Part shown: one piece after another, positions 24,570 to 33,660 of the stretch | Numbering within the stretch: the first letter of the stretch is position 1 | Layout of the letters: each line of letters begins with the position of its first letter | Source of the DNA: Candidatus Bathyarchaeota archaeon | GTDB taxonomy: Archaea; Thermoproteota; Bathyarchaeia; TCS64 | DNA: 64,000 nt | Reading direction: 5' to 3' | Assembly (NCBI GenBank): GCA_963769425.1 | Contig: CAVYLP010000004.1 | Location: 160,001 to 224,000 of the forward strand | Notes under the pieces: model-generated | Told to the model about the DNA's origin: nothing | What the model saw: only the letters and a program-made list of their open reading frames with translations | Databases searched by the model: none | Program-made: the position numbers and the translations under genes

Positions 24570-25336
24570 ATGTATTGGCTTACAATCCCACCGAATTGAT
24601 GGCCTGCGCCGCGTCTCGGGTGCTGGAAGATGGTAAATCCGTCTTCGTAGGCACCGGCCTACCTATCATAGCGTCGATGCTCGCCCAGAGGACCCACGCA
24701 CCGAACCTCCTGGTTGTCTTCGAGGCAGGGGGCATTGGCCCCAAGATTCCCGCGATACCTATCAGCGTCGGCGACAGCCGCACCTTCTACAAGGCGATCA
24801 TGGCGGCGAGCATGGACTACGTGATGAGCTGCGCCCAGCTCGGCCACATCGACTATGGTTTCCTCGGCGCTGCCCAGATAGATCAGTACGGCAACCTGAA
24901 CACGACCTGCATCGGGCTGCATGAAAAGCCTAAGACGCGGCTACCAGGCAGCGGTGGCGCAAACGACCTCGGCAGCCTCTGCCATCGCACAATCGTCCTC
25001 ATGCGCCAGGATACCCGCAAGTTCGTAGAAAAGATCGATTATCTCACCACACCAGGATACCTCTCTGGGCCTGGAGCGAGGGAGAAAGCGGGGCTCCCGC
25101 GGAACACTGGTCCGTACAGGGTTATAACCCAACTCGGCGTCATGGGGTTCGACCCGGAATCGAAGAGGATGACCCTCGTCTCTGCCCACCCAGGGGTGAC
25201 TGTAAAGGACATTATTGACAACACAGGGTTCAAACTTATAGTCCCCGATGTCGTCCCGACAACGGACATGCCCAGCGCCGAGGAGTTACGCATACTCCGA
25301 GAGGAGCTGGACCCCAACAAGATAGTTATTGGGTAA
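24554..25336 (+). CDS. CoA-transferase subunit B
   Basis: FVGTGLP, catalytic FEAG, GAAQIDQYGNLN, RLPGSGGAND. Confidence 0.88.
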   Translation: MGEEVNVLAYNPTELMACAASRVLEDGKSVFVGTGLPIIASMLAQRTHAPNLLVVFEAGGIGPKIPAIPISVGDSRTFYKAIMAASMDYVMSCAQLGHIDYGFLGAAQIDQYGNLNTTCIGLHEKPKTRLPGSGGANDLGSLCHRTIVLMRQDTRKFVEKIDYLTTPGYLSGPGAREKAGLPRNTGPYRVITQLGVMGFDPESKRMTLVSAHPGVTVKDIIDNTGFKLIVPDVVPTTDMPSAEELRILREELDPNKIVIG

Positions 25337-25350
25337 CAGTCTTCAACGGT

Positions 25351-25635
25351 CTATCTGATTAGTCCTCTGCTTCGGATTTTCTCTTTAGTTTCTTGCGGGA
25401 GAAGCTTGTACGCCTCCGCCATCTCATCCCAGTCGAGCATCTCCCACCACTCGGGTTTGGAGATGCTGATCGAAGGGTTCCCAACCTCGATTTTTACGAG
25501 GTCGCCATCGTTAAATTGCCAATTAGGATCGTCTAAGACGCTCTGAGGTAGGTATAACCGTGCACCTGATTTCTTGAAGTACTTGACCTTAGAGACCGCC
25601 ACTTTCCCCATAGTAGACCCTTCCATTCTCCGCAC
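25351..25635 (-). CDS. small AbrB-like DNA-binding protein
   Basis: ARLYLPQSV...GDLVKIEV swapped-hairpin pattern. Confidence 0.5.
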   Translation of the reverse strand: MRRMEGSTMGKVAVSKVKYFKKSGARLYLPQSVLDDPNWQFNDGDLVKIEVGNPSISISKPEWWEMLDWDEMAEAYKLLPQETKEKIRSRGLIR

Positions 25636-25829
25636 CTTAGATGTTAAGGAGCAGATTTTATAATTACTTAGTAACTTTTAAACTTTTTAGTATTTAATAT
25701 CTTACTAAGTACCAAATTTATATAACATACAATTTATATTGTATCTATCCTCGCCATAGTGGGCGTGAGAGATCCTATGGTATTACGATGAATGGTATCG
25801 CTGTTCTCGAGGTTTGGGGCTGATCTGAG

Positions 25830-26897: not shown

Positions 26898-27740
26898 GTG
26901 TCTTACAAGTTGAGTCTCGAGGAGGTTGAGAAACTCGGCTACTACGACTTCATGGGTTACCTGGGCGTGCCCTTCTTCAACATCGGGGGATTCGCCAGCA
27001 TAGACCACCTCGCGGAACTGTGCCAAATAACGCAGGAGACCAGGATACTGGAGGTCGGCTGCGGGACAGGGGACGAACGCCTGCTACCTCGCCGAGAAGT
27101 ACGGGTGTACCGTCGTTGGCATAGACATCGCCGAGTACATGGTGGGGCAAGCGACCAGGAAGGCGGAGGAACGGGGCCTCTCCGATCGAGTATCCTTCAG
27201 GGTAGGGAACGCCTACCGGCTCGACTTCCCCGACACCACATTCGACGCCGTCATAACCGTCTTCGTCAGCCAGTTCCTCGACCCTGCCAAGGCGTTCCCA
27301 GAGTTCATCAGGGTCCTCAAGGACGGCGGCCGTCTCGGTGTAAACGAGATGTACCGGGCGGAGAACGTGCCCCTAGAGATTAAGGAGAAGGTAGACGAAA
27401 ACGAGAAGGCATTCCGCGAGCTGACCGGGCTGCCCTTCACCCTCCGCAGCCCCGAGACGTGGCAGTCGAGCCTTCGAATCCGCTGGGTTCGAACCCGTCA
27501 CGCTTAGAGAAGCACCCCAACGCCCAGCAGCAACCCTACTCGGAAGTATAGTCGAGGAGTTCGGTGGATGGGGCAAACTCATCGGCACCTTCTGGATGTT
27601 GCTCGTCTACGCCCTGAGGAGCGGGGAGATAGAAGAAGACGCTTTACCAAGTAGGCAGCACCAAGAAGACCCTGATAAGAGACAAGGAGACGAGCAAGTA
27701 CATCGGCTACGTTCTCTGCGTGGGTTCAAAGAACCCTTGA
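26898..27740 (+). pseudogene. class I SAM-dependent methyltransferase, several frameshifts
   Basis: ILEVGCGTG then GIDIAE, GNAYRLDFPDTTFDAV, RVLKDGGRL in shifted frames. Confidence 0.78.
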
Positions 27741-28183
27741 ATCCTAAGGTTTCTTATGAATAGCTGAAGATTAGACCAGCCCATCAATACAAAAAAGGTA
27801 AACAGTACAATGAATCCCATTCTCCGATTGAGTCTAAAAGAAACTCCAATGATGCTGAATTCAGCTGCATAAAATACAAGAATATATGAGATATGCATTA
27901 TTAAGTTCTCCCTAAATGGGATAAACAAAATATAATCAAGCAATAACTCTAATAGAAGATAGAGAATGATCACTATATTGGATATTATTATCCGTTTTTC
28001 CTCATCACCCTTCAAGAATTCTATTAAGGTGTAGGTAAACGGGATAATCAAAATTATTATCGGGACACCAATGACCCGAACGAGAGTCATTTGATCAAAC
28101 TTAGAGAAAACGTAGACAGCACTCACTAGAATATTAAACATGATGGAGGCAGCAATGAATATTCTATCTCGGTTTTTGTTCAA
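27707..28183 (-). CDS. AT-rich membrane protein (cassette 1); true stop probably near 27754
   Basis: five hydrophobic segments, LELLLDYIL..PFR; lower GC than flanks. Confidence 0.7.
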   Translation of the reverse strand: MNKNRDRIFIAASIMFNILVSAVYVFSKFDQMTLVRVIGVPIIILIIPFTYTLIEFLKGDEEKRIIISNIVIILYLLLELLLDYILFIPFRENLIMHISYILVFYAAEFSIIGVSFRLNRRMGFIVLFTFFVLMGWSNLQLFIRNLRIQGFFEPTQRT

Positions 28184-28242
28184 AGGATTCTTTACCTGAA
28201 CACAATTCGATCCCTCGTGTACGTGACCACGTCAACCACAAA

Positions 28243-28355
28243 TCACTATTAACTATCAGGTGGATGTGAGGATAAGACTATTACACGTAAGATGAGGCTT
28301 ATACCGAAGTAACTTTGGGATAAGTTTTTTCGAAATCAGGCAGAGCTAAGGATGA
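28243..28355. repeat. cassette repeat copy A
   Basis: TCACTATTAACTATCAGGTGGATGTGAGGATAAGACTATT..AGATGAGGCT..TTTGGGATAAG..GAGCTAAGGAT. Confidence 0.88.
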
Positions 28356-28408
28356 GCACAGGAAAACTTGACGCATGAACAACAAATAAGATGTATACTG
28401 TAACCACG

Positions 28409-29851
28409 TTATTTTTTACCTTCATAGACCTTTGCCAGCTCTCTGGCCTTGTCGAGCGGCGGCTCAATAGACGAGTCTCGTTTATACTCCCTACCCCGAA
28501 GCCGTCTGACATGCTCTCCCTTCGCGTCCCTCAACAGGTTAGGGGTCATTAACAGATCTAGGACAGACCCAGCCATGGTTTTAGACGCGAATAATAGACT
28601 CTTATGACCGATGCCAGACCCGCTGCAGGCAGTAAACTGCCAGCTGTGACCCGGAGCACCATTAACATTACAGGCGGTGTTAAACTCCATGGTCGGAGTA
28701 ATCCAGCTGACATCAGCCACATCGGTGCTTCCGGGACTCGTAGTCCCATCGTCCCAAGCGTCGAAGATCTCCGTTATTAGGTCCTGATCCACATATTTTT
28801 CCCAGTTGGGAACCTTATCCTTCCTTAGACTCGTCTCTCTATCCTCAAGCGGGAAGCTCTTAGCGATCTCCGCCGCGAACTCGTGATCCTCCGGGCTAAA
28901 TCGCTGGGGACCGACGAGCCGCATATTGGCTGTAACAACCTCGCTGAGAACCTTGTTCGGAATCTTATGGTACCCACCCCAACTCATCTCAGCCTCCAGT
29001 CTCGTCTCAGTCATCAACGCAGCTCCCTCAGCTACCTTCAATACACGTTGCTTGATAGGTTCCAGGAGAACCTGCTCGGGAGCCCGGATGTAGTAGTAGC
29101 TGCGCGCATAGTCAGGCACAACGTTGGGCTGACCACCACCGGCCTCGATGACGTAGTGGATTCTAGCCTCGGGGATTATGTGCTCCCTCAGATAGTTTAC
29201 ACCAACATTCATGAGCTCGACGGCGTCGAGGGCGCTTCTACCCGCCTCAGGATTCGCGGCTGCGTGGCTCGATTTCCCGTGGAAGTGGAAGTACGCACCA
29301 CTTATCACGTTGCTGCTGGCCAGGGTAGCCACATTCATATCCCCCGGGTGGTGGCTTAAGGTGGCGTCTACGTCGTCGAAGAGGCCGTGGTTGACCATGA
29401 TTCTCTTCCCGCTGAAGTTCTCCTCGGCAGGGGTACCATAGAATCGAATAGTTCCCTGTATGCCATGTTTCTCCAGCGCCTCACCGGCCGCAATAGCTGC
29501 CGCGAGGGCAGTTGTGCCGTGGATGTTGTGTCCGCATCCGTGGCCCATCCCGCCCTCGATTAGAGGCTCTTTTCGAGGTATGGGTCTGTTGCTTAAGTTT
29601 GGTAGGGCATCGTACTCACCCATGACGGCTACAATTGGTTTGCCTTGCCCTTTTTCGGCCAGAATTGCTGTGGGCATATTGGCGACGCCTTGTTGGACTC
29701 GGAAACCGTTTTTCCTCAGGGTTTCGGCGAGTAGTCGGCTTGATTTTTCCTCGCATAGGCCGTACTCTGCGTAACCCCATATCTCATCGCTAATGGAGGT
29801 TAGTTGGTCCTGGTGGTCTTCTATCCATTTCCACGCCGTTTCTTTGATCAA
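28409..29851 (-). CDS. M20 amidohydrolase, AbgB-like (cassette 2)
   Basis: EYDALP, GHGCGHN, GTPAEE, GRSALDA, GSTDVADVSW, PGHSWQ. Confidence 0.92.
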   Translation of the reverse strand: MIKETAWKWIEDHQDQLTSISDEIWGYAEYGLCEEKSSRLLAETLRKNGFRVQQGVANMPTAILAEKGQGKPIVAVMGEYDALPNLSNRPIPRKEPLIEGGMGHGCGHNIHGTTALAAAIAAGEALEKHGIQGTIRFYGTPAEENFSGKRIMVNHGLFDDVDATLSHHPGDMNVATLASSNVISGAYFHFHGKSSHAAANPEAGRSALDAVELMNVGVNYLREHIIPEARIHYVIEAGGGQPNVVPDYARSYYYIRAPEQVLLEPIKQRVLKVAEGAALMTETRLEAEMSWGGYHKIPNKVLSEVVTANMRLVGPQRFSPEDHEFAAEIAKSFPLEDRETSLRKDKVPNWEKYVDQDLITEIFDAWDDGTTSPGSTDVADVSWITPTMEFNTACNVNGAPGHSWQFTACSGSGIGHKSLLFASKTMAGSVLDLLMTPNLLRDAKGEHVRRLRGREYKRDSSIEPPLDKARELAKVYEGKK

Positions 29852-29960
29852 GTCTTATCGAATATTCATGGCGAGGGTGGATGTATAAAGTATTAAAAGT
29901 ACACATTGGAATTAGGCGATCGATTTTTAGTTGGAGTGAATTGTAATTTTGATCAAGGCT

Positions 29961-30055
29961 GACTATCAGGTGGAACCGGATAAGACATTCACCCCTAGAT
30001 TTCTATTACGTTAGATGAGGCTAATGCCAAAGAGACGTTGGGATTAGATTTTCTT
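29961..30055. repeat. cassette repeat copy B (with a short insertion after GGATAAGAC)
   Basis: GACTATCAGGTGGAACCGGATAAGAC-ATTCACCCCT-AGATTTCT..TTAGATGAGGCTAATGCCAAAG..TTGGGATTAGATTTT. Confidence 0.85.
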
Positions 30056-30113
30056 AACCAAGTAGTTTGATAAAAAGCGCACGTTTTACCCGAATAGATG
30101 GCAATACTATATT

Positions 30114-30629
30114 ATGGGGTATCCAAAGACTCTTTTGGAGATTCTCTTGTCTGACAGAGTTAAGACCCTAAAAGCATTCGCTGAAGTTCTCTTCGGTAGA
30201 TTCGATAACTCGGTGAAGGATCTGAAAGAGGCCGAGGCTGTCTGGAAACCCGTGGGCGAGGCAAACAACATCATGTGGATTCTCACCCACCTTTCTCAGG
30301 AGTGGAATGTAGGCGTAACCCGAGCCATCAAGGGCGACCCGACATTCAAAGTTGCAGGCTGGCCTGATGATTACGTCGGCAACTCGTCATACTCCTTGAA
30401 TAAGATTATGAAGGACCTTAAACAGGGTAGGGAGATTTTCATTGGAGCGTTGGACAAGCTTAGCCCCGCGGACCTGGATGTTGAGATTAACACGGCCCGT
30501 GGGGTTAGGAAACGTGAGATGATGCTTATGATGCTTATATCAGAGATTTCTCATCATGCGGGGCAGATCGCCTACATTAGAGGAGCAGTCGGTCGTAGGA
30601 AACTGACTGAACCTGCTTTCCTCGCATAA
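30114..30629 (+). CDS. DinB family protein (cassette 3)
   Basis: NNIMWILTHL, HHAGQIAYIR. Confidence 0.85.
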   Translation: MGYPKTLLEILLSDRVKTLKAFAEVLFGRFDNSVKDLKEAEAVWKPVGEANNIMWILTHLSQEWNVGVTRAIKGDPTFKVAGWPDDYVGNSSYSLNKIMKDLKQGREIFIGALDKLSPADLDVEINTARGVRKREMMLMMLISEISHHAGQIAYIRGAVGRRKLTEPAFLA

Positions 30630-30690
30630 GGCCCGCACATTATTGGGTAAATAACGTTATAAACAGAGGCGTAAGCGCCTCGCCAATCAA

Positions 30691-30805
30691 TCACTAGATT
30701 ACTATCAAGTGGAGGTGAGGATAAGATTTCTTATACATTAGATGAGGCTAATACCAAAGTGAATTTGGGTTAAGATTTTTCCGGATAGAGTTGAGCTGAG
30801 GATAA
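30691..30805. repeat. cassette repeat copy C
   Basis: TCACTAGATTACTATCAAGTGGAGGTGAGGATAAGATTTCTT..TTAGATGAGGCTAATACCAAAGT..TTTGGGTTAAG..GAGCTGAGGAT. Confidence 0.88.
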
Positions 30806-30866
30806 ATCTATGGCAAGGCTGTACACGCGATAAAAATTAAAGAAGTATCGACGATATAATCGAATC

Positions 30867-31709
30867 ATGGCTGAAACAATGAGAGTGCACGGGTACTCAA
30901 GGGAGGATCTCATGAAGATGGATGTAGGCTCTCTGAGGGCAGTGCTGCACGAGAGAACGCACCACGGTATCGAAGTTCACCTCTACAGGATCCTTAAGGG
31001 CAAAATGGAGAAGCCAAAGGAATACGGCGCCCAGGCAAAATACATTCTAGGGTTATGGGAGGAGAGGGGACTCCCTATCGACACACCGGATATCCAATGG
31101 TGTAAGTGGAACATCGAAGCAGCGGAGAAGCTGAACAGAGGCGAAAGGGTTGAGCTCGAAACTAGTAAGCCTGAGCCCTTCACCGACGGCGAGATGCTGA
31201 CGGTGAGGAAGCTCCTATACGGGAGGAGATCTATCCGCCAGTTTAGGAATAAGCCCGTACCTGAATCGATGCTACGGGAGATCCTCTATGCGGGCCTCAT
31301 GTCTCCGCAGGGATGTAACGTCGACTCGAGGAGGTTCCTGATTCTGAGGACGCCCGAGGAATGGAAACTCGTCAGTAGCGACCTACCGGTGGAGAACTGT
31401 GTAATGATCCTTGTCCTCCAGGACACGAGGGTCTACAAGACTCTGGGGTTCGATAAACGTGCGCCGCAGAATATGCTCTATGACGCCGCAGCCGCAGCTG
31501 ACCATATCTGCCTGATGGCTCACGCTCTGGGACTGGGTGCGTGTTGGCTCACACATGGGGAAGAGACTCAGGTGAAGATTAGGCAGCACTTTGGTCTGGA
31601 CGAGGGTATCGTGAGTCGACTCCACATAATTGTGGGGTGGCCGGATGAGGCCCCTGTGAAGTCTCTTAGAATGAGCCTAGATGATGCAATAATTGAGACT
31701 CGAAAATAG
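30867..31709 (+). CDS. nitroreductase family protein (cassette 4)
   Basis: RRSIRQF, ICLMAHALGLGACW, VGWP. Confidence 0.88.
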   Translation: MAETMRVHGYSREDLMKMDVGSLRAVLHERTHHGIEVHLYRILKGKMEKPKEYGAQAKYILGLWEERGLPIDTPDIQWCKWNIEAAEKLNRGERVELETSKPEPFTDGEMLTVRKLLYGRRSIRQFRNKPVPESMLREILYAGLMSPQGCNVDSRRFLILRTPEEWKLVSSDLPVENCVMILVLQDTRVYKTLGFDKRAPQNMLYDAAAAADHICLMAHALGLGACWLTHGEETQVKIRQHFGLDEGIVSRLHIIVGWPDEAPVKSLRMSLDDAIIETRK

Positions 31710-31761
31710 TCCAAACAACTCGTGGGACGTTGATTGGAGAAAGGAAATTCATCATTATAAT

Positions 31762-31801
31762 TCACTGTTGACTACCAGGTGTAAGTGAGGATAAGACTAT
31801 T
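31762..31801. repeat. cassette repeat copy D (left half only)
   Basis: TCACTGTTGACTACCAGGTGTAAGTGAGGATAAGACTATT, then similarity stops. Confidence 0.82.
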
Positions 31802-31930
31802 GAATTTGAAGTGGCAGGATTTCCATTAATTTTGAATAATGAATTCTATTTTAAAAAAAGGTAAAATCAAATTACCTATCTTTGGTAATGGTGTGAAAAA
31901 ATGAAGAATCTCAGATGAAAACCTACTAAA

Positions 31931-32908
31931 TCACCTGACATAGTCGTCAAATTTCCAGTAGTGCTCTTCTTCCTGCATCACTATGTCTTCGAACATTCGC
32001 CTTGTCAAGGTGTCTCCCTTCTTCATCGCCTCCACTATGATACTTCTGTAGAGGACGATAGCATCATTCTCCGCGGCGTGATCGAGCATGAGGAAGTCGT
32101 CTGGGGTGTCACCCACCTTGGGTAGCGGATCAGGGAGCCCAACCGCCTCTCCCTCGAGGAGGTATATCCTCTCCGAGATCTTCTCCAGGTGGTCCATCTC
32201 CTGCATGAAGACGGGTTTGAGTAGTTCGCTCACAGCCTTCGCCTTGTTGTTGTCTGTGACTACCTCGAGGGGTGTCTCCTTCACCCTCAGCTTCAGATAT
32301 GCGGCCTTCTCGTGCTGGTTCGTATACTGGATGATGGCCATGATCTCGCTTGCGACGGCCTTGTTGAGGAGGGCAAAGTAGTCATCTGTGAAGACCTTCC
32401 TCCACTCACTTAGCTTGATGGTCTCCTTCTGGGACTCATCCTGCATGTGGGTGTATTCCTGGAACTTGAAGAGGTGCCCCTCCTCTTCTCCGTAGATCTT
32501 CTCGAAGAGTTCACGGGTCTCATAGTCACCATTCTCAATGGTTGCCTCGAGGATCTGCCTGTAGAGGACGAGGGCCTCTTCCTCCGCTGCGACACCCAGT
32601 CTCGCGAACTCGCTGAGTGAGTCTCCGACGATTGGTTTTTTCGCCTTGGTCGTCGCTTGGCCGCCGAGGTAGTATATCCTCTCCATGATGGAGGCGGCGT
32701 GCTTCATCTCTTGGATGCCTATCTCGCGTAGGAACTTGCCCACGGCATCGTACGTCGTCTTGTCGAGGAGGACGTTCTCGGGGAGCTTCTTCCTCATCAG
32801 CTTCTCCATCTTAGCGTGCTGGAGGAGGTACTGAATGCTCACCTGTATCTCCCTCTCGATTGCTCCGTTGAGCAGATCTATGTACTCTGGCGTTATCTTG
32901 ACAGCCAT
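31931..32908 (-). CDS. tandem two-domain ferritin-like (bacterioferritin-type) protein
   Basis: two repeats of LLN.A...E...IQY..QH, EM.H...I.ERIY.L, EE.H. Confidence 0.85.
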   Translation of the reverse strand: MAVKITPEYIDLLNGAIEREIQVSIQYLLQHAKMEKLMRKKLPENVLLDKTTYDAVGKFLREIGIQEMKHAASIMERIYYLGGQATTKAKKPIVGDSLSEFARLGVAAEEEALVLYRQILEATIENGDYETRELFEKIYGEEEGHLFKFQEYTHMQDESQKETIKLSEWRKVFTDDYFALLNKAVASEIMAIIQYTNQHEKAAYLKLRVKETPLEVVTDNNKAKAVSELLKPVFMQEMDHLEKISERIYLLEGEAVGLPDPLPKVGDTPDDFLMLDHAAENDAIVLYRSIIVEAMKKGDTLTRRMFEDIVMQEEEHYWKFDDYVR

Positions 32909-33039
32909 TCTTCACAACCTTCTGAATAGTTTTAGGAAGCAAGGGATATTAATAATTCGGGTATTGTGGTGGGAAAATTGGCTAAAAATACATATTATTT
33001 AGTGACAATAATTTCCCTCGTGTTTCCAAGACTTTTTAA

Positions 33040-33603
33040 GTGAAAAATGGCAGAGCAAATGATTACATGCCCCAACTAGGCCTGACAATTCCTTCAGTTC
33101 TGACGATTGGAATAGTCCTGGTATGGCTGGCGTTGATGCTGGCCTATAGCCCCCTGGCGGACAGAATAGCGTCGCGGCTGGTAGGTAAGCCACCGACCCT
33201 CGACGTTTTCAGGGTGCTCCAGCAATCGAGGGGCAAGCTCGTAGCCGGAATCGCGGTAGCCTGGATCCTCAGCTTCGTGGAGGAGTTCGTTTTTCGGGGT
33301 GTCATCCTACTTTGGATTGTGGACTTATTGTTGCCCCTACTCGTTGAATCGACTGCAATCGGAATCGCGGTTTGTATCACGGCTGTTGGGGCGGGCGTCA
33401 TACACCTCTACCAAGGCCCGCGAGCAGCAGTCATCGTGACTCAGCTCTCGGTTCTATTCGGGCTACTCTTTGTCCTGAGTGGCTACAACTTGTGGGCCGT
33501 CGTGTTATGTCACGGGCTTTACGATACAATCGCGTTCATCAGGTTCGCGAACAAGAAATCAAAGTATTCGAACCTCAACGAGGCCAATAACCAAAGTGCC
33601 TAG
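33040..33603 (+). CDS. CPBP (CAAX-type) intramembrane protease, possibly 5'-truncated
   Basis: EEFVFRG, HLYQG, LCHGLYD. Confidence 0.8.
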   Translation: MKNGRANDYMPQLGLTIPSVLTIGIVLVWLALMLAYSPLADRIASRLVGKPPTLDVFRVLQQSRGKLVAGIAVAWILSFVEEFVFRGVILLWIVDLLLPLLVESTAIGIAVCITAVGAGVIHLYQGPRAAVIVTQLSVLFGLLFVLSGYNLWAVVLCHGLYDTIAFIRFANKKSKYSNLNEANNQSA

Positions 33604-33660
33604 TCGGCCTTATCCTCGTTGGATTTGAAAAATGGTTTTTTGATTAGTACTCGTAGGATC

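Follow-up and report, generated by a model that had tools for sequence, protein, structure and literature searches.

The attC sites of integrons carry the inverse core motif RYYYAAC ... GTTRRRY and form an imperfect hairpin, and integron cassettes are promoterless as a rule; glyoxalases, DinB, SnoaL, cupin, nitroreductase and acetyltransferase proteins are typical of their accessory functions. The Vibrio cholerae repeats (VCRs) of the V. cholerae superintegron are attC sites of about 120 nucleotides (nt), imperfect palindromes served by IntIA. The pdif sites of Acinetobacter plasmids (XerC/XerD) are 28-bp Xer sites with inverted arms, which alternate in orientation around modules. The archaeal integrons of Ghaly et al. 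(2022; PMC9668308) were detected via canonical attC and IntI models. Here we analysed a 64,000-nt stretch (the window) of contig CAVYLP010000004.1 from an archaeal metagenome-assembled genome (MAG; 2.55 Mb, 6 contigs, 91% complete) assigned to the Bathyarchaeia, in which a preliminary description had seen an integron-like array of single-gene cassettes separated by a repeat of about 100 bp. The repeat consists of two modules, L and R, and L is the junction element of arrays found across the genus. G000 denotes the genome of the window, G001-G017 the other genus members and C the contig number.

A two-module repeat and its arrays

The repeat forms mostly same-strand arrays, the gene content of these arrays varies at fixed flanks, and mosaic breakpoints lie in or near the L core. 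A repeat search of the window returned three-copy families at 28240-28353, 29978-30052 and 30689-30803 and, at 31759-31801, just the left part. With a profile made from copies A-C, these copies were recovered at E-values of 6e-34, 6e-25 and 7e-34 and the left-only copy D (31760-31801) at 5e-4, so that all four copies previously placed at 28243, 29961, 30691 and 31762 were found again where they had been put.

Alignment of all copies in G000 resolved the two modules. The L core of 22 nt reads ATCAGGTGGAAGTGAGGATAAG (the core is given as 22-30 nt overall), and conservation of L extends beyond the core by about 14 nt on its 5' side and 8 nt on its 3' side, giving about 45 nt in all. R is about 50 nt long, with two short inverted repeats and a T-run at its end, and stands 0-25 nt from L. 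It is usually followed by another L core, giving the common composite L-R-L', which window copies A and C display. Their degenerate extra L copies after R (28337-28358 and 30787-30812) were overlooked at first reading; the one in copy A is too degenerate for a fuzzy core search. The commonest form of the element is L without R, R following L in 32 of 306 copies, and copy D is therefore a complete L and no half-site. The array had been thought to end in half-sites on both sides, but neither end bears this out. At the right the end copy is a whole L, and at the left the supposed right-half copy at 27745-27779 is undetectable: it matches copy C at 19 of 35 ungapped positions, is absent from the profile search at E<=10, and lies in the 3' coding end of a membrane open reading frame (ORF), a stretch conserved in the G001 homologue; we do not count it as a copy.

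A C/A-rich tract (CCCAAACCC or of CACACA type) directly follows 33 of the 306 L copies, for example at G000:C6:905168, at C1:335978 and at many G012 loci. At G002:C45 such a tract is inverted and lies on the opposite side of a half L core.

Array statistics were taken from 266 distinct L sites of the relatives. Of 166 pairs of neighbouring L sites, 158 are co-oriented, with a median L-to-L spacing of 655 nt (quartiles 584-1346) and mostly single genes between them. The flanking genes are predominantly antisense to L (176 of 240 on the 5' side, 177 of 244 on the 3' side), about 73% sharing this orientation. For 75 of the 176 antisense genes on the 5' side, 10-20 nt separate the start codon from the core start, and for 89 of 177 on the 3' side, where the preceding gene lies, its stop codon is <=30 nt away from the core end. 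The orientation bias and these distances together give, in gene sense, the tightly packed order stop - L - start. Genes bracketed in this manner in G000 encode SnoaL-like, helix-turn-helix regulator, acetyltransferase, beta-lactamase-fold, NHL propeller and FAD oxidase proteins, and further PadR, cupin, hemerythrin, SDR and glyoxalase proteins.

Searches with a 23-nt L pattern (<=3 mismatches) detected 12 copies in G000, where the reversed pattern has none, and copies in 13 of the 17 other genus genomes, the number per genome ranging from 0 to 140. Outside the genus, 2 of 19 other family genomes had a single 3-mismatch match each, the 24 genomes searched from outside the family had none, and over all 61 genomes the reversed pattern matched once. 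An exact 20-mer of L returned 92 stretches among 185,579 species genomes, 90 of them titled Bathyarchaeia or Bathyarchaeota, where our own arithmetic gives a chance expectation of about 1 match. The same 20-mer is present in at least 120 metagenome stretches and common in sediment and peat contigs, and viral contigs contain no exact match. By these sequence searches, L is specific to one Bathyarchaeia genus. No description of the repeat was found in the literature searched, in which DUF4760, the family discussed below, occurs in one paper on an unrelated subject. Single exact matches of the 20-mer also come from a Clostridia MAG and from a 3.1-kb contig of a Thermodesulfobacteriota bin, where chance or mis-binning is possible. 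Within G000, L clusters at 188-192 kb of C4 (the window locus), at 3-11 kb, 313-315 kb and 335-336 kb of C1 and at 70-72 kb of C6, in addition to three single copies.

Variation of genes between fixed flanks, as the preliminary description had anticipated, is evident at the window locus itself. The four-gene island is absent from G008:C61, where positions equivalent to 27736 and 31933 are just 27 nt apart and the methyltransferase gene lies next to the ferritin gene; this empty site has no L. At the same position, G017:C91 carries 2.9 kb with two unrelated GC-rich genes instead, and in G012:C64 the methyltransferase gene is missing as well. The nitroreductase unit of the island recurs in L contexts on other contigs of G002, G012 and G005. 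Its homology to G002:C45 (89%) and G012:C68 (87%) starts exactly at the GGATAA of the partial L core L'_C, and the sequence to the left of this GGATAA differs in all three genomes. Two metagenome contigs have a full L before the same unit start. Similarly, an MtmB-like gene that borders the C6 array of G000 also borders L/R elements in G002 and G012, where the array content differs. One cassette occurs at 98-99% identity in two G012 arrays with different neighbours, and a second cassette is shared within G012 at 89-92%. Co-oriented single-gene arrays thus occur genus-wide, the same cassette is met in different arrays, and homology mostly breaks in the L core. Copies of L are neither scattered independently of gene boundaries nor associated with an invariant, vertically inherited cassette content.

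Two side observations belong to these loci. At L024 (G002:C45), the nitroreductase unit and its L are followed downstream, at 2700-2920, by two minus-strand tRNA-like sequences seen by eye. At L165 (G012:C13), about 300-345, an R module of opposite orientation occupies the place where G000 and G002 have L beside the MtmB-like gene.

A test for one-sided homology was applied to 289 L sites. Of 11 pairs with right-only homology, 7 are homologous up to the core, as are 13 of the 16 with left-only homology. The tightest junction is that of site L075 (position 4154), whose left side is common to one partner and whose right side is common to another; it is bracketed to 11 nt, AGGATAAGACT. Other pairs imply a crossover at core position 8 or earlier (90% pair) or at +11 or later (98.5%-identical pair). 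Core positions 6-22 track neither flank, positions up to 5 go with the left flank and positions from 23 onwards with the right flank. A TAAGA core, as first suggested, is contained in the 11-nt bracket, but breakpoints elsewhere range beyond this one position. Circular junctions of the left with the right half had been proposed as a check in reads. A read search matched 9 DNA runs, each with <=0.15 of the sampled words, and no RNA run, and contigs of relatives from 4 DNA runs contained no excision or circle junction; the joints seen are of L to R as in ordinary L-R units.

Possible readings of L: gene-start module or recombination site

We put forward, with about even confidence, the reading of L as a gene-start module that recombines with its other copies. 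On the window minus strand, L would be a compact module in which a TATA-like TTATCC lies about 35-40 nt ahead of the start codon, followed by 17 almost invariant nt and then, 5-10 nt ahead of ATG, by a GTGA/GGTG motif, a presumed ribosome-binding site. The module would belong primarily to an expanded family of DUF4760 membrane proteins, and it also stands before or between unrelated accessory genes. Recombination among tens to more than 100 near-identical direct copies (L, R and conserved gene starts) would delete, duplicate and swap the genes between them, and would produce integron-like, strain-variable arrays without a dedicated integrase. The window segment would then be a small, partly decayed instance of a genus-wide modular array. 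Both the promoter activity of L and the pathway of recombination are predicted here from sequence features.

Several findings are consistent with such a module. In G012, 16 loci have a minus-sense ORF that begins right beside L, 5-10 nt away from the end of the profile. A single family (about 180-200 amino acids, aa) makes up 36 of 89 ORFs that adjoin L/R in G012, and 5 of 6 members tested match DUF4760 (PF15956); PADLOC and NCBIfam gave nothing useful for these proteins. Counts of L and DUF4760 over the 18 genomes correlate with a Spearman coefficient of 0.69, the genomes being related and not independent. The two are separable, G001 having no L and 5 DUF4760 matches and G010 one L and 11 matches, and the DUF4760 genes of these two genomes have a variant module of the same layout: TTTTATCCTCA, about 22 nt, AGGTG and ATG. 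Upstream words in G000 peak at 26-40 nt (TATA-like) and at 6-15 nt (GGAG/GTGA) before ATG, which the layout of L fits. No DUF4760 gene was found in G000, and the four window copies would accordingly be orphan modules at old junctions; L_A is the only one of them that might still face a gene. The TCACT leader is retained in copies A, C and D, of which C and D point towards gene 3' ends. The breakpoints do not appear to fall at one base, which makes recombination between repeated modules as likely as the action of a dedicated recombinase; their spread is the pattern that recombination between any repeated modules would give. In the one strain-level replacement found, the flanks are 98% identical and 3.1 kb in one contig stands against 0.85 kb in the other, the exchange ending in R and in the N-terminal coding region of a gene.

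A number of results weigh against a gene-start module. Its TATA-like element is a weak match, and 17 invariant bases between this element and the ribosome site are beyond the needs of a promoter. A DUF4760-like ORF abuts just 88 of 302 L sites, and the rest are similarly conserved in the core (1.6-1.9 mismatches of 22), in a comparison for which copies with >5 mismatches were not collected. G000 retains 12 L copies with no DUF4760 match; a gene stands in front of one of the four window copies, and conserved upstream sequence of its own precedes the M20 gene. Tyrosine recombinases lie beside several arrays (G002:C34 and C28, G012:C29, C15 and C40, the last of 330 aa, and G016:C10), and the tightest mosaic bracket measures merely 11 nt. 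A search for cassette gain or loss at 712 sites between matched flanks (duplicates between collections included) revealed no simple cassette indel and just one replacement.

An alternative that we consider possible, if doubtful, is that L is the attachment site of a hitherto undescribed site-specific cassette system that would be functionally analogous to the integron. A trans-acting recombinase would move units composed of the right part of L, a gene and the left part of the next L, with the crossover in or near GGATAAG, and R would be a second type of site or a non-coding cassette. The co-orientation and spacing of the arrays, copy numbers from 0 to 140 inside one genus and the integron-like repertoire of cassettes (glyoxalase, DinB, SnoaL, cupin, nitroreductase, acetyltransferase) argue for it, and so do the cassette shared at 98-99% identity by arrays with different neighbours, the TAAGA-containing 11-nt junction, the exact start of the nitroreductase unit in three genomes, an L core neutral to both flanks and the MtmB-like gene that adjoins arrays of differing content in G000, G002 and G012. 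Moreover, an array of at least 20 sites in G002:C34 has, 440 nt away and in divergent orientation, the gene of a 441-aa Zn-ribbon tyrosine recombinase. PF00589 was searched in G000, in 5 L-rich genomes and across the genus, with four recombinases used as additional queries. The best candidate is the G012:C29 type (372 aa), present in 8 of the 18 genomes; at least 9 L copies were counted in 7 of these 8, and both G012 copies of the recombinase adjoin arrays.

Against an attachment site, no recombinase family is consistently beside the arrays. The array-adjacent enzymes belong to different families, none of which tracks L genus-wide; G009 and G011, with 35 and 38 L copies in fragmented assemblies, are without the C29 type, and G000 has a single PF00589 match (C4:282254, 90 kb from the array) and the C29 type as a fragment only. 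Breakpoints spread over several positions, although later gene conversion among copies could blur a precise crossover site, and the G008 empty site retains no L. By these same findings, the tandem site-specific insertion that the first account had proposed for the window array is not supported. L furthermore lacks inverted symmetry and hairpin covariation, and its fixed distance from start codons is not needed by a pure recombination site.

Integrases that split their own gene on integration leave scattered C-terminal fragments. Short C-terminal fragments of the 441-aa Zn-ribbon recombinase family were observed at G000:C1:320410-320550 and in at least 15 places in relatives, one of them 6 kb from the L cluster at 313-315 kb of C1.

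The two functions might also be joined. We suggest, tentatively and as an unlikely case, a form of cassette shuffling peculiar to this genus, in which a double-stranded site of 22-30 nt would serve as a portable gene-start signal and at the same time as the crossover point for a trans-acting, non-IntI recombinase. The candidate enzymes would be the array-adjacent tyrosine recombinases of 372-441 aa.

It is improbable that L, R or both are small structured RNAs, acting as a processing signal, a riboregulator or a terminator in the L direction, with the variability of the arrays incidental. R does contain two short inverted repeats and a T-run, 87% of its cells pair in 48 copies, and L fits closely into the gap between two ORFs, from the first one's stop codon to the second one's start codon. 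Nevertheless, Rfam yielded no match at the gathering score in the window and none at E<=1 in 27600-32000, fold energies are no better than those of shuffles (z -0.83 to +0.57), the R helices show almost no compensatory change (position 12/23 is unpaired in 15 of 48 copies), and 306 L copies contain no long-range covariation.

Least of all do we favour L-R as a non-autonomous element akin to miniature inverted-repeat transposable elements (MITEs) or repetitive extragenic palindromic (REP) sequences, inserting in intergenic DNA with ordinary neighbours in between: it is multi-copy, lineage-specific, intergenic and variable in number, and short R-bearing units (60-90 nt) occur between two L cores, but terminal inverted repeats and target duplications are missing from the copy ends, G000, at 91% completeness, yielded neither a Y1 transposase nor TnpB, and the copies are not scattered but arranged in co-oriented arrays at the borders of genes. 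Between arrays the homology changes at L; L therefore delimits what moves and is not the moving element.

The window island and its neighbourhood

The features of the locus are listed in the table below. The earlier account had named four unrelated genes in mixed orientation, and the family matches agree with it (membrane protein, M20, DinB_2, nitroreductase). At its left end, the GC content of the island falls to 0.34-0.39.

Features of the island, its junction modules and its flanking genes (window positions)
Feature	Position	Strand	Remarks
Methyltransferase, class I (left flank)	26898-27740	+	PF08241 and related families
Membrane ORF, 158 aa	27707-28183	-	35% GC; no family match; 71 nt downstream of L_A, minus-strand reading
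Strain-specific island of four single-gene units and L/R junction modules	27737-31932		4.2 kb
L_A, L module	28240-28284	+	core 28255-28276, 1 mismatch to consensus core
R_A, R module	28285-28332	+	two short inverted repeats, then T-run
L'_A, degenerate second L core after R	28337-28358	+	seen via L-R-L units at other loci
M20-family amidohydrolase gene, 480 aa	28409-29851	-	PF01546, PF07687; TIGR01891 255 bits, above cut-off
L_B, L module	29951-29993	+	core 29965-29984, 2 nt shorter
R_B, R module	30008-30055	+	14 nt after L_B
DinB_2-family gene, 171 aa	30114-30629	+	PF12867, E 1.6e-12
L_C, L module	30689-30733	+	core 30704-30725, 2 mismatches
R_C, R module	30734-30781	+	
L'_C, partial L core opening the nitroreductase unit	30787-30812	+	homology starts at its GGATAA
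Nitroreductase-family gene, 280 aa	30867-31709	+	PF00881, E 1.2e-21
L_D, complete L module without R	31759-31803	+	core 31774-31795, 3 mismatches
Ferritin-like/rubrerythrin-domain gene, tandem (right flank), 325 aa	31931-32908	-	PF00210, E 1.4e-35

The membrane ORF has no match in Pfam, NCBIfam or PADLOC, nor with a custom profile of the DUF4760-like family (E<=1e-5); the sole genus homologue found is on G001:C60 (74% DNA identity). The closest DNA homologues of the M20 gene (81-83%) are those of G016, G011 and G009, in other contexts, and homologues of the DinB_2 gene (77% DNA identity) are on G012:C28 and G013:C87, in each case with no adjoining L core. Movement as L-bounded units is therefore unsupported for both genes. 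The ferritin-like gene of the right flank is kept in at least 9 genus genomes at 76-85% DNA identity. That no integrase is adjacent, as noted from the outset, agrees with the genes at 24.5-35 kb of the window, among which there is no recombinase or integrase.

The methyltransferase gene of the window has at least 3 frame changes, and its G008 orthologue is open in one frame. The SDR gene of the C6 array is likewise split (75 + 170 aa). Both are either pseudogenes or reflect single-base indel errors of the assembly.

Two further stretches of the window are variable among relatives. An AT-rich stretch of about 0.5 kb at 25336-25829 (GC 0.42-0.45), with a 94-aa minus-strand ORF and no neighbouring L or R, is missing from 8 relatives (G008, G012, G013, G003, G015, G009, G011 and G016), in which its flanks are contiguous. 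The gene of an Rce1-like CAAX protease (33040-33603; variable spot 32962-33660) is missing from G012:C64, where the flanks are 64 nt apart, and is also skipped by the metagenome contig of one relative; this is the third variable spot within 10 kb.

Significance and comparison with described systems

In sediments and peat, Bathyarchaeia rank with the most abundant uncultured archaea. The element described here marks points of single-gene exchange in one genus. If L is a recombination site, it would represent an integron-like system invisible to current integron finders, and if it additionally serves as a gene start, captured genes would arrive ready for expression in an independently arisen archaeal analogue of the integron. 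If it is instead a promoter module with homologous recombination among its copies, no dedicated enzyme is needed for integron-like arrays to form, and caution is due before every repeat-bounded cassette array is called an integron. Either way, the flexible genome of these archaea can be probed simply with the 22-nt core.

The arrays resemble integrons and clusters of attC sites lacking integron-integrases (CALINs) in being tandem, mostly co-oriented and composed mostly of single-gene units with one repeated site, mostly without an adjacent integrase. Site copies are homogeneous per genome, content is variable at fixed flanks, and the accessory functions are of the same kind. They differ in that no IntI was found, the G002:C34 recombinase scoring 70.7 bits against a TIGR02249 cut-off of 265, and in that L, with 22-45 nt, has no R''/R' inverse cores, no hairpin and no covariation. 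Pairs of inverse core sites (RYYYAAC ... GTTRRRY) are absent from either strand of 27700-31900, in keeping with the earlier remark that the repeat lacks attC-type ends. L also differs in its fixed distance before start codons, in the promoter and ribosome-site look of its sequence and in breakpoints that seem to fall at no single base.

As with VCRs, more than 100 near-identical site copies can be present per chromosome, many cassettes are paralogous and the site sequence is species-specific; the palindromic fold and the service by IntIA were not seen for L. With pdif modules the arrays have in common discrete units of one or two genes in varied combinations, a short conserved site and no dedicated integrase beside it, whereas L is without inverted arms and directly oriented in the great majority of neighbouring pairs. 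We class the element as integron-like cassette arrays built on a non-attC junction module.

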